Shown here in pieces: positions 32,701 to 34,723 of a stretch of 64,000 bases of DNA (positions are counted from its first letter, which is position 1; every line of letters begins with the position of its first letter). A model generated the notes under the pieces. The model saw nothing but the letters and a program-made list of their open reading frames with translations, did no database searches and was not told the origin of the DNA. The DNA lies in NCBI GenBank assembly GCA_976226885.1, contig OZ320319.1, forward strand, positions 39,990,001 to 40,054,000. The letters are read 5' to 3'. Both the position numbers and the translations under genes were made by a program. This DNA is from Iphione sp. A-MEVVRFRX5. Lineage: Eukaryota.

Positions 32701-34723
32701 ATACAAGGTAGATGGCATTGCTCACTCATCAAGGACTGTTTTTGAGTTTGACGGATGTTATTACCATGGACATGCGTGCTTAAAAGGAAAGACAAATGAA
32801 GACGAACGGGTGCGGAGACAAAAAAGAACGAAAGAGCGTTTGCAATTTCTAAAAGATCAAGGATATAAGGTGGTTGTGATGGAAGAGTGCAAGTTTCTGA
32901 ACATGATGGATACATTAAAAGATGTGAGAGAGTTTGTTGACAGGTTCATGCCTGTGTTTACTAGGAATCATCCAGGAGGTGTGACAGAGCACCAGATTTT
33001 ACAGGGAGTGTGTGATGGAATGCTATTTGGAGCGGTGGAAGTGGACATTGAGGTTCCAAAAGTATGGCCACAAGGCAAAGAAAAATTATTGCCGCCTAAC
33101 AAATATTTCGAAGAGATGTGCCCTTTATTTGGTAATGCAACAGTGGAAATGAGTGACATTGGAGAGCATATGCAACGACATATAGAAGAGCATAAATTGT
33201 CTAATAGACCAAGGCGTTTGCTAGTAGGAACAACAAGAGCAAAGAAAACACTGATAATGACACCTTTACTAAAATGGTATATTGAGCATGGAATGATTGT
33301 AACTAAAGTGTACCAGACAATCGAGTTCATTCCACAGAAGTGTTTTAAAACCTTTGCTGATGACGTGACTGAAGCTAGACGACAGGGAGACAGTGACAAA
33401 GACAAAGCAATTATTGCAGATACTATGAAACTGATCGGCAATTCAGCATATGGAGGTATAATAATGCAAAAGGAGAAACAGTGTAGTGTGAAGTACTACA
33501 CTAGTGCTCGCCAGGCTGTGTCAGCAGTCAATTCGCCTCGTTTCAGACGAATGGTTGAGATGAACGGCCTGTATGAAGTGGAAGTTGCAAAGGCGAGGAT
33601 TGCATTAGACATGCCAGTGTATATTGGGTTTTCGATCTTGCAATATGCGAAGCTGACGATGCTCTCATTTTACTATGATTGTATAGACCGCTTAATTGAC
33701 AGAAACAAATTTGAATACATAACTATGGACACAGACAGTGCGTATATAGCGTTAGCTGGACTAACATTGTTCGAATCCATGACAGACAGTGGTAAAAAAA
33801 TGTATCAAAAAGATACTTTGGGTCACTGCAATGAGCATTCTATGCCTGTGTGGTTCATGAGAGAGTGTTGTGAACGACACCGGAATTTTGATAGACGTGT
33901 ACCTGGTTTGATGAAAGAAGAAGCACAAGGAGATAAGATCATAGCATTGTCAAGCAAAACATATGTGTTGGAGAAGAAGGATAGTTTCCCACATCCACCA
34001 GTAAAAATGAGTTGTAAAGGAATCGCAAAATCTCGAGTAGTAAACCCTGTCCGAACTTATGAGAGTGTTCTAGAGACTCAGAGAGGGAGGGCAGGAAAGA
34101 ACAAAGGCTTTAGAGTATGGATGGGAACAGTATGTACTTATGAGCTTGAGCGGGAAGGATTTACATATTTTTATGCAAAGAGGGTAGTGCATACAGATGG
34201 GGTCCACACATCCCCATTAAATATTACATTGTGCCCTTGGAGTGATGATGTGTTTAATTATTGCTTTATAAGTAAGCCATGGCACGTTTTGAGTCCTCAG
34301 TTTAAATGTGAATTAGGAAACGGTTTCATATCGGTAGAGCACGTGTTTGTGTACAGGATGGCATTGTTTAACCATGCAAACGCAATAGCCTGTGCAATTC
34401 GAGCCACGTCTGATCCAAGTGAGTTCAGAGAGTATGCAAATATGGTAAAACAATCAGCAGAATGGAAGGCAACTGTTCAGAAAGTTGTGATGAGCGAAGC
34501 TTGTCTGTTAAAAGCTAGAGTTCTGAAGCAGTTGGTGATTCGCGAACTGAATCATAATAAACAGATAGTGTATGCATGTAAGGACAAATATTGGGGAGTT
34601 GGAATGGATGAAAAATTGGCAGAAATTACATGTCCGGATGAGTTTAGGGGGAAAAATATACTGGGAGAAATATGGGAAAGCATAAGAGATAAGAGGCTTG
34701 GAGATAGAACAATGATGTGTTAA
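29795..34723 (+). CDS. pPolB: Protein-primed family B DNA polymerase: C2H2 fingers, terminal-protein region, vOTU-like domain, exonuclease, polymerase with VSR-like insert, C-terminal NADAR-like domain
   Basis: Exonuclease motifs VFDCES, GFNSGKYDF, YNKLDV. Polymerase motifs LDANSLY, KLIGNSAYG, YITMDTDSAY. 1642 codons without a stop; AATAAA at ~34734. Confidence 0.96.
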   Translation: MPQHACPHCKKTFTYKANAVKHAMSCEQKRRLMCRVCQRRFQTSKQRDVHEQRFHRRKLSRFRCRKCNQEFTNRSELYEHDGEQHGSDEELQNVEWAHQNEPWLRRRANMSGGVEVDRDYERVYNANRRHILARHVSGEVTATYNFPTNNLQEGRAEFARHMDEIFRREQMSYKLNVGFGVILRHVETGKHRYFVPYKNSSVFEEPVIVSKQSDVVSVTDLLASVDVSKHFTESRPDTKWVAEAVVNVMYFVSRMDFVLGRGFLPRFLKCRYYIEALDQYADGSPVTDSLCVFRCLAMHERKADTLEQSALEYYERWRIYVAMHRGVLLDRDGTKYEGVGMDELSEFEECFKVNIYVFEMTLEKTVIMHYKPFKGGYGTTMHLNVFEGHLSYVKDFKRYARKFECVLCRRHFKRKYDVVRHMKGCPVQTKYVYKGGYYANPQTVFEALDEVGINVPQEDRIYKHFAVFDCESMLRSMPEGDSPKLKWIHKHEAVSVAVSSNVPGFQEPVCFISEQMSVMIDDMVTYLEKIREAAIVSAKVKWADAMAKLADLKQNVQRIVSGMGSQGEAVLDNVQYHAANNTGSSGNEERVSENESVGGDDVCLETREGLINGDDGDDDDGDEGTSSSGSEQAHIAAGNPHRQMLTSLTKLEERLTTYISTLPVIGFNSGKYDFNVLRAELLKRLKIRNKELFVIKRGNMYVNVDNSELKFLDISQYLTPGVSYSKFLKAYGVEEKKGVFCYEYLDSPSKLAETQLPPYEAFYSSMKGSNITREEYEELEVTWEREGMKSLRDLLEYYNKLDVGPFVEGVTRLQAFYFERGVDVFKVSVSAPGVARRLLFQSARKEGVRFPTFGARDEDMYQTFKQNIVGGPAIVFTRAHEKDETFIRDSLNKCQTILGLDANSLYLYCIGKYHGTGSFVRRRSETGFRQEKHAVSILSVIWMEWEASRRGQTILHVGNRYEGEVQIGPYKVDGIAHSSRTVFEFDGCYYHGHACLKGKTNEDERVRRQKRTKERLQFLKDQGYKVVVMEECKFLNMMDTLKDVREFVDRFMPVFTRNHPGGVTEHQILQGVCDGMLFGAVEVDIEVPKVWPQGKEKLLPPNKYFEEMCPLFGNATVEMSDIGEHMQRHIEEHKLSNRPRRLLVGTTRAKKTLIMTPLLKWYIEHGMIVTKVYQTIEFIPQKCFKTFADDVTEARRQGDSDKDKAIIADTMKLIGNSAYGGIIMQKEKQCSVKYYTSARQAVSAVNSPRFRRMVEMNGLYEVEVAKARIALDMPVYIGFSILQYAKLTMLSFYYDCIDRLIDRNKFEYITMDTDSAYIALAGLTLFESMTDSGKKMYQKDTLGHCNEHSMPVWFMRECCERHRNFDRRVPGLMKEEAQGDKIIALSSKTYVLEKKDSFPHPPVKMSCKGIAKSRVVNPVRTYESVLETQRGRAGKNKGFRVWMGTVCTYELEREGFTYFYAKRVVHTDGVHTSPLNITLCPWSDDVFNYCFISKPWHVLSPQFKCELGNGFISVEHVFVYRMALFNHANAIACAIRATSDPSEFREYANMVKQSAEWKATVQKVVMSEACLLKARVLKQLVIRELNHNKQIVYACKDKYWGVGMDEKLAEITCPDEFRGKNILGEIWESIRDKRLGDRTMMC

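Follow-up and report, generated by a model that had tools for sequence, protein, structure and literature searches.

YbiA-type NADAR hydrolases (PDB 8BAU and 2B3W; PMC11543638, PMC12945103) are the closest described relatives of the domain analysed here. Activity is abolished by K95A and D171A/N in the E. coli C7 NADAR (PMC11543638) and by E167D/Q in the SCO5665 NADAR (PMC12945103), and in 8BAU the pyrophosphate is held by K50 and R79. The viral counterpart is AdfN (gp30.3) of T4-like phages, a stand-alone, active anti-DarTG1 NADAR, which requires E36 and K43 and is inactivated by K43A (PMC11257639). On eukaryotic mobile elements, NADARs occur in the Tx1 LINE ORF1 of Crassostrea gigas and in the Gypsy Pol of Ectocarpus (PMC12477816). 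Among polymerases, the pPolB2 of mollusc and marine-nematode Polintons is described as carrying a Vsr domain, and the main text of that report does not mention NADAR (Jeong et al., bioRxiv 10.1101/2023.08.22.554363). Lastly, the pPolB of adenovirids and bidnavirids is fused to an inactivated vOTU domain (PMC11161782). Here we describe a Polinton pPolB that ends in a NADAR domain. A sequence-only reading of this DNA knew of no such fusion, and our literature search found no description of one either.

A NADAR domain at the end of a Polinton polymerase

The window, that is, the whole 64,000-nucleotide stretch of DNA that was analysed, contains a 20.7-kb Polinton flanked by 68-nt inverted repeats (28088..28155, + strand, and 48744..48811, − strand, 99% complementary) and by an identical 6-bp target duplication (28082..28087 and 48812..48817). 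Besides these termini, it has the pPolB, rve integrase and A32 ATPase of a Polinton/Maverick element, all on the + strand: the pPolB open frame (29795..34723, 1642 codons stop to stop; DNA_pol_B_2, E 8.5e-7), an A32-like packaging ATPase (34841..35467; Pox_A32, E 3.5e-5) and a retrovirus-like integrase with a chromodomain (36389..37546; rve, E 3.4e-5; Chromo, E 3.2e-6). Three further + strand frames gave no match in the Pfam search. The frame at 38264..39616 is a probable double jelly-roll major capsid protein, judging from its Atlas look-alikes (score 0.98), which lie in clusters with the DJR-like family PF21738 on 15–30% of members; that at 37512..37898 is probably the minor capsid protein, from its size and position only. 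The third (39597..40076) is probably an adenovirus-type maturation protease, from its position and a His-Trp motif.

The first ATG of the pPolB frame lies at 29864, and 1619 amino acids run from there to 34723 (+ strand; residues are numbered from this ATG). The real 5′ end probably lies in an exon further upstream; a zinc finger is encoded upstream of the ATG, behind an AG that follows a (TA)n tract. Motifs B and C of the polymerase are identical in 41/41 copies. Within the polymerase, residues 905–1035 (32576..32968, + strand) form a putative Vsr-like endonuclease domain that is weakly matched (DUF559, E 8.6e-4; Vsr, E 0.022); the top three entries of a PDB search with this insert were E. 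coli Vsr chains (E 0.16–0.21, sub-threshold but consistent), and two pPolB relatives carry the name Vsr from their source. Among relatives that have a name, the closest are proteins of molluscs and echinoderms. Intact polymerase motifs and a putative Vsr-like insert are what this protein shares with the pPolB2 of Jeong et al., as far as their main text describes it.

After the polymerase, the sequence-only reading had noticed a stop-free extension of about 160 residues (its 1483–1642, here 1460–1619) with a series of NADAR motifs, and had proposed a NADAR/YbiA identity. We found all of these motifs in a single frame (ORF 29864–34723), and assigned residues 1456–1619 (34229..34720, + strand) to a NADAR/YbiA-fold domain with its linker on the basis of Pfam and a structural model. 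Firstly, Pfam PF08719 (NADAR) matches residues 1486–1610 (34319–34693) with an E value of 2e-13 and scores 51.3 bits, the cut-off being 35.1. Secondly, an AlphaFold2 model of the domain built from an 86-sequence alignment, which replaced a poor single-sequence fold (pLDDT 45), reached a mean pLDDT of 93.8. Foldseek aligned this model to the P. nicotianae NADAR 8BAU (E 2.5e-5, TM 0.71), and VIA gave Z 16.9 (rmsd 2.4 Å over 152 residues) for 8BAU and Z 15.0 for E. coli YbiA (2B3W), against at most 5.2 for unrelated rows. Because many canonical NADARs were in the alignment, the model and the Pfam match do not count as independent evidence. A PDB search with the single domain sequence returned no match; a profile search then recovered both 8BAU and 2B3W. 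The polymerase end and the domain are joined by a short conserved linker (residues 1456–1465; 34229..34258, + strand) with a Pro-Trp pair at 1458–1459 that is present in 30/33 NADAR-bearing tails vs 6/79 other tails of at least 4 residues.

The fusion is not confined to this copy. All 150 places scored in the same genome match it (49–100% identity), giving at least 150 copies, and 36 fusions from outside this genome were scored. Polymerase and NADAR run in one frame of 1583–1708 codons in 40/40 copies fetched, these being chosen for long frames. A read-through or assembly artefact is therefore ruled out, and the Polinton pPolB-NADAR fusion is real.

Pocket residues and selection on the domain

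The residue calls made from the letters of this copy were correct: the Glu and the Asp-x-x-Trp are kept, the usual Lys is Met and the last-strand Glu is Tyr. By profile mapping, E1492 (34337..34339, + strand) corresponds to E43 of 8BAU and E88 of C7, and is Glu in 63/70 loci sampled in this genome. D1574 (D130), W1577 (W133) and W1534 (W89) are each kept in 70/70. A report on YbiA treats the residue types of these four kept positions as critical (PMC9303266). The essential Lys site (K50/K95) is occupied by M1499 (34358..34360, + strand); across the loci it is Met in 65/70 and a gap in 5/70, with Lys or Arg in 0/70. Y1570 (34571..34573, + strand) stands at the essential last-strand Glu/Asp/His site (E125/D171), which is Tyr in 45, Phe in 24 and Leu in 1 of the 70. 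Hence the catalytic triad is intact in 0/70 Polinton loci. Grouped into 29 families, these Polintons have Met at the Lys site in 28 and Tyr/Phe at the last-strand site in 29, and the loss of both residues is fixed in this genome. The pyrophosphate-binding Gly78-Arg79 is replaced by A1525 and N1526 in this copy; over the 70 loci, the first site is Ala in 60 and Gly in 5, and the second Asp/Asn/Glu in 60 and Arg/Lys in 6. The R93 site is Arg/Lys in 57/70. The domain thus shares with YbiA-type hydrolases the fold and the equivalents of E43, W89, D130 and W133; it differs from them in the replacement of K50, E125, G78 and R79, in the absence of the Y84 loop and in being fused to a viral DNA polymerase.

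Elsewhere the triad is kept more often: within the same genome, it is present in 88/133 unfused NADAR domains and in 24/29 LINE ORF1 domains, and among ORF1-type NADARs in 8/16 when Arg is counted for Lys. Among the matches listed, two of the 36 outside fusions have Glu-Lys-Glu and one has Glu-Lys-His; intact fusions may be undercounted, since the search used degenerate queries and only the best 150 of 256 matches. Aligned outside fusions kept E43 in 13/29 and W133 in 16/29. Across fusions the last-strand site is Tyr, Phe, Gln, Cys, His, Ile, Val or Leu, with Glu lost in about half of the outside ones.

The NADAR domain is under purifying selection. Its dN/dS is 0.12, 0.16 and 0.09 in three within-lineage pairs; a fourth pair (0.55) was dropped, as its two families are far apart and their synonymous sites are saturated. 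Pooled over two disjoint pairs, dN/dS is 0.17 for NADAR vs 0.065 for the polymerase. Over 41 copies, mean identity is 58% in the domain vs 29% in an internal linker, and 49 columns of the domain are at least 90% invariant.

Origin and fate of the domain

We built a quick tree of 116 rows and a careful tree of a 48-row subset, both without an outgroup root. Polymerase-fused NADARs fall on one side of a branch (68/88; 93 SH-aLRT for 49/50 rows in the quick tree), next to two intact-triad fusions and the domains of zinc-knuckle (Tx1-like) ORF1 proteins, and cellular NADARs stand apart (98/90). From these sequence trees, monophyly of the fused domains is not strongly supported, and short branches could make the intact domains look basal. 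When the fused domains were grouped with those that LINEs in this genome carry in ORF1, the result was borderline (p-AU 0.052). On the trees, the nearest unfused kin are of the zinc-knuckle ORF1 type and, like the Tx1 and Gypsy NADARs, sit on a eukaryotic mobile element, although the Tx1 ORF1 is a retroelement RNA-binding protein and not a DNA polymerase. Searched with a Tx1-type ORF1, this genome gave matches over the NADAR domain only, so no direct donor was found there; IMG/VR scans found no relative, and an Atlas search with the fusion end gave no usable match.

Related families show a stepwise shrinking or loss of the domain. Among the 120 nearest polymerases, 82 have a short tail only, and NADAR is absent from those named relatives whose end is complete (Haliotis, Tegillarca, Mytilus and one Argopecten). 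Twenty relatives carry a shortened domain of 115–149 residues. Of 12 that were aligned, 10 are without some 30–40 residues that include W89 and the K75/G78/R79 helix; in these 10 the linker is still present, as is the Trp-x-x-Gly / Gly-x-Asn core. On the polymerase tree, the relatives with a shortened domain stand in two or more separate positions; their clusters have 256, 217 and 66 members, and they therefore belong to proliferating families. One NADAR-less relative has a DUF4326 domain, predicted to act on ADP-ribose derivatives (PMC9503650), in the same slot. The family offers a rare graded series, from an intact signature through a pseudoenzyme under selection and an internally deleted remnant to complete loss or replacement by another ADP-ribose-linked domain, and the fused NADAR is a C-terminal module not described before in Polinton polymerases. 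The fusion suggests gene transfer between a retrotransposon and a DNA virus-like element.

Role of the fused domain

We favour, with a probability of about 0.55, the reading that the NADAR domain, lacking two of the residues needed for cutting, is a non-catalytic module likely packing against the polymerase and supporting replication. In a single old event, a Vsr-type pPolB would have taken up an active NADAR, whose source was most likely a LINE ORF1-type protein, and catalysis would have been lost early; the domain, tied by its conserved linker of about 10 residues, would since have been retained as part of the folded enzyme, where it may serve stability, processivity or the docking of a partner. 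The inactivated vOTU of adenovirid and bidnavirid pPolB offers an analogy, being a former enzyme attached to pPolB that has lost its catalytic activity, was kept and has been proposed to act structurally; it differs in its fold, in its N-terminal position and in never being lost, whereas the Polinton NADAR is lost in many relatives. This dispensability, with a short tail only in 82/120, speaks against a structural module.

A doubtful alternative is that the domain no longer cuts and still binds ADP-ribose, a base that is ADP-ribosylated or modified in another way, or a nucleotide in its cleft, and thereby places the polymerase on marked DNA or regulates it there. The equivalents of E43, W89, D130 and W133 are kept as given above, R93 is mostly Arg/Lys, the replacements are themselves fixed (Met, Tyr/Phe) as if selected, and the aromatic pocket residue could stack on a base. 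Such binding is weakened, however, because the phosphate-binding positions have changed too, K50 to Met and R79 mostly to an acidic residue or Asn; moreover, outside fusions often lack E43 and W133, and the pocket wall is deleted in whole families. Of the "eraser or reader" put forward by the sequence-only reading, the second part thus survives in weakened form.

It is improbable that the domain is a remodelled N-glycosidase acting on another substrate, such as a damaged base or small metabolite, and possibly forming a repair module with the Vsr-like nuclease in the same polypeptide. The retained Glu-His pair, Asp and both Trp would fit, and YbiA also cleaves riboflavin intermediates; yet no new acidic residue is conserved across fusions, the last-strand site is variable and Glu is lost in about half of the outside fusions. 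Slighter still are the chances of a functionless passenger, kept only since mutations that break the frame close to the end of the polymerase do harm. The domain is indeed absent from many relatives and less constrained than the polymerase, but a stop codon just behind the polymerase would suffice to shed it at no cost, and a dN/dS of 0.09–0.16 together with the 49 near-invariant columns already largely refutes this.

The weakest proposal, made by the sequence-only reading, is an active eraser that works in cis on template or displaced ssDNA and takes ADP-ribose off it, in counter-defence against host DNA ADP-ribosylation: AdfN, which strips DarT1 marks from phage DNA, is a viral precedent that might by analogy be tied to genome replication, and the few intact outside fusions, the DUF4326 in the same slot and the mostly intact NADARs of LINEs in this genome lend it something, but the proposal is unsupported for this element because the lost residues (the Lys that AdfN requires among them) are essential in tested NADARs and the replacement is fixed (0/70), which makes an eraser role unlikely for this copy. 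Nor did the host genome match PF22596 or PF14487 (Scabin/pierisin-like and DarT), a search whose controls were equally blank, and the guanine-N1 mark made by animal PARP15 is left in place by NADAR in vitro. For the ancestor and the two Glu-Lys-Glu fusions among the 36, an eraser role stays plausible.

More speculatively, mobile elements of marine invertebrates may be in an ADP-ribosylation conflict with their hosts, in which LINEs would use active NADARs, a Polinton polymerase would have captured one to erase base marks during replication, as the intact-triad relatives would still do, and the present lineage would have turned it into a reader of marked DNA; we consider this rather unlikely. 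If true, it would point to a so far undescribed defence in animals, directed at transposons and viruses through ADP-ribosylation of their nucleic acid. Hundreds of LINE and Polinton copies with a NADAR lie in this single genome, which makes it a concrete case for testing if animal hosts attach ADP-ribose to mobile-element nucleic acid.

Also against the favoured non-catalytic module, the four pocket residues are near-invariant across the loci sampled here (Glu 63, Trp 70, Asp 70 and Trp 70 of 70), and the cleft may therefore still have something to bind or to act on.

As to a non-catalytic module on the polymerase, the residues at polymerase positions 1354, 1361 and 1369 are strongly associated with the presence of the domain, for example Leu1369 in 55/62 vs 4/78. 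A sign test of this covariation on independent contrasts was not significant, because contrasts were lacking (2 on well-supported branches). The NADAR domains of this genome have a mean net charge of 0, and a basic DNA-binding clamp is therefore not favoured.

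The polymerase-NADAR fusion

The Polinton occupies 28088-48811 of the window, with 68-nt inverted repeats and a 6-bp target-site duplication at its ends. Besides a protein-primed DNA polymerase (pPolB; frame 29864-34723, giving 1619 aa when counted from its first ATG), it encodes an A32 ATPase, an rve integrase and probably a double jelly-roll capsid protein. All 41 copies compared share the same polymerase motifs B and C. A Vsr-like insert, with weak matches only, would place the enzyme near the mollusc-type pPolB2 described by Jeong et al.; its nearest named relatives, among the 120 nearest of 1181 full-length matches, belong to molluscs and echinoderms. 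The 5' end of the gene (29270-29864) probably undergoes splicing: a (TA)n tract and an AG precede the start of the open frame at 29795, and a conserved zinc finger is encoded ahead of the first ATG, an arrangement found in most of 40 other copies. Across 5 kb, a sister copy shares 99.86% identity with this one, which points to recent movement of the family. Two membrane-protein-like ORFs lie within the element (40752-41819, minus strand; 42384-43400, plus strand), both with a signal-like start, a cysteine-rich head, a Ser/Thr-rich stalk and a hydrophobic segment, and neither has a convincing Pfam match. Between 28000 and 50000, GC skew switches from positive in the Polinton's left half to negative in its right half. 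About 850 bases to the left of the element, a LINE (22909-27235, minus strand) carries a coiled-coil ORF besides a 975-aa ORF for an endonuclease-reverse transcriptase.

The sequence-only reading had proposed that a NADAR/YbiA-like domain is fused to the C-terminus of pPolB. Past the end of the polymerase, near aa 1455, the frame indeed runs on into a domain whose match to Pfam NADAR exceeds the cut-off (aa 1486-1610, E 2e-13) and which contains every motif then quoted. A structure model built from an 86-sequence alignment (pLDDT 93.8) matches the P. nicotianae NADAR 8BAU and E. coli YbiA 2B3W far above other folds; in BFVD, viral NADARs are matched as well. In the Iphione genome the domain is matched at all 150 scored places (49-100% identity; 1883 candidates), and the frame from polymerase through NADAR has no stop in 40 of 40 fetched copies, which were selected for long frames. 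Elsewhere, pPolB sequence directly precedes the domain in 30 of the 150 representatives listed, of 256 matches in all, and a profile search added 7 further fusions. Thus the fusion is real, and we reject an artefact.

Loss of the triad, and selection on the domain

The key residues of the E. coli C7 NADAR are reported as E88, K95 and D171 (E43, K50 and E125 in 8BAU); activity is lost in K95A and D171A/N, the effect of E88A being minor in vitro (PMC11543638). Loss is described as complete for E167D/Q in a YbiA-like enzyme (PMC12945103), and AdfN K43A and E36A lose rescue (PMC11257639). At the triad positions, mapped through one profile, the window domain has E1492, M1499 and Y1570, the Glu retained and the Lys and second Glu replaced just as previously noted from the sequence. 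It has Ala for G78 and Asn for R79, retains W89, D130 and W133, and lacks the Y84 loop. None of 70 Polinton loci scored in this genome (L051-L120) keeps the triad: the Lys position is Met in 65 and a gap in 5, the Glu position Tyr in 45, Phe in 24 and Leu in 1. These loci include near-identical copies, and 30 were found with an intact-triad query; collapsed to 29 families, they have Met in 28 and Tyr or Phe in all 29. Of unfused domains in the same genome, by comparison, 88 of 133 retain the triad, as do 24 of 29 LINE ORF1 domains. Outside fusions have Glu-Lys-Glu in 2/36 and Glu-Lys-His in 1/36, a share that may be too low since they were found with degenerate queries.

The NADAR domain is not decaying in this genome's Polintons. 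Three pairs taken within lineages give it a dN/dS of 0.12, 0.16 and 0.09 (a fourth, 0.55, was dropped as cross-family and saturated). Pooling of two disjoint pairs gave 0.17 for NADAR, compared with 0.065 in the polymerase and 0.13 in the Vsr insert. All these values are rough, as the number of usable pairs is small.

Distribution and origin of the domain

Among the 120 nearest full-length polymerases listed, of 1181 matches in all, the tail is NADAR at E < 1e-4 in 24 and at E < 0.01 in 9 more; 82 others are under 60 aa, 4 are unrelated and acidic, and 1 is DUF4326. The domain is absent from named relatives with a complete end. Twenty tails are shortened (115-149 aa), and 10 of the 12 aligned lack two helices and the Trp forming one wall of the ADP-ribose site, retaining the linker and C-terminal core; the clusters of three shortened-tail families count 256, 217 and 66 members. 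On a midpoint-rooted FastTree phylogeny of 149 polymerases, 29 of them added because they bear the domain, NADAR presence switches 7 times and most NADAR-less proteins nest in one large group, a pattern that would be compatible with an early gain of the domain and repeated loss. One outside pPolB nested among NADAR-less relatives (P0187) carries instead a C-terminal DUF4326 (E 1.9e-19), a domain that PMC9503650 links to ADP-ribose processing. Two other outside records (P0163, P0164) combine an mRNA capping enzyme and a cap methyltransferase with a NADAR at the C-terminus.

Polymerase-fused domains cluster together on domain trees, with 0.98 local support in one, 49 of 50 fused rows grouped at 93 SH-aLRT in a second, and 68/88 in a careful 48-row subset; the two intact-triad fusions sit at the edge of the group. 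Cellular and bacterial NADARs branch apart (98/90), and closest to the group lie NADARs from ORF1-like proteins with a zinc knuckle, a type noted with NADAR in oyster Tx1 LINEs (PMC12477816). The simplest reading would be capture from a LINE, a direction suggested by the nesting. In a large LINE group of this genome (L022-L050, L121-L126), ORF1 (coiled coil, L1-ORF1-like by eye) ends in NADAR, followed by an SGNH/GDSL-like ORF and an endonuclease-reverse transcriptase ORF in each of the 5 elements whose full length was read; the triad is retained at 24 of 29 loci, the LINE ORF1 count given above. The genome's best 150 PF08719 matches lie mostly in frames of 500-600 codons.

In some Polinton families (L109-L120) the NADAR ends in a tail that is encoded by a microsatellite and differs in length; in L112-L120 this tail is poly-Gln. 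The NADAR of a divergent family (L091-L095) has an internal deletion and a four-cysteine tail; its pPolB appears to contain introns, one of which seems to split motif C.

A probably disarmed domain and its possible roles

We infer that this is a Polinton polymerase variant whose clade-wide, selected NADAR domain is predicted to be catalytically disarmed; in this lineage it very probably hydrolyses no ADP-ribose. Among viruses, NADARs are described from phages, from giant viruses and from RNA viruses of invertebrates (PMC9503650, whose searched text names neither polintons nor adintoviruses); bacteria and many animals (PMC11125620) and retrotransposons (PMC12477816) are also reported to have them. 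No pPolB-NADAR fusion was found in the literature searched (mostly open-access main texts), relative to which such a selected, disarmed domain is new. The first NADAR domain of nematode SNA-3 is reported to lack the critical residues (PMC9303266), and the inactivated vOTU domain reported for adenovirid pPolB (PMC11161782) is a precedent on this type of polymerase.

We favour, at a probability of roughly 0.55 overall, that the disarmed NADAR would be retained as a docked accessory domain of the polymerase, because two essential residues are fixedly lost under selection on the remainder, the conserved linker is very short and the core survives deletion of the pocket wall. Linker Pro-Trp occurs in 30 of 33 NADAR tails versus 6 of 79 others. 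Close to the Lys-x-Tyr motif, three positions of the polymerase vary with NADAR presence, which would fit packing of the domain on the polymerase, with too few contrasts in the phylogenetic control. Counting against docking, the domain is not basic in this genome, and replication proceeds in its absence in many relatives. Here, four residues of the pocket hardly vary, which leaves some room for a domain that binds rather than cuts, an unlikely role, and less for a changed glycosidase, which we consider improbable. The cis-acting ADP-ribose eraser first proposed is disfavoured by M1499, Y1570 and the missing triad at all 70 loci scored, and is very improbable for the window copy; we rate it higher for the ancestor.

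A host defence that ADP-ribosylates nucleic acid of mobile elements seems doubtful. Searches of this genome for Scabin/pierisin-like or DarT genes found none, a negative of little weight as the control searches were blank too; CARP-1-type genes are reported in bivalves and other animals. According to a 2026 preprint, NADAR removes the guanine-N2 mark and leaves in place the guanine-N1 mark that PARP15 makes, and for this reason ordinary PARPs are no obvious counterpart. The conflict idea is still alive at the genome level, since many LINEs carry mostly intact NADARs and there is one host-type NADAR gene. This stand-alone YbiA-type NADAR (L021:1360-2346, minus strand) has the full triad, groups with cellular NADARs and is the genome's best PF08719 match.
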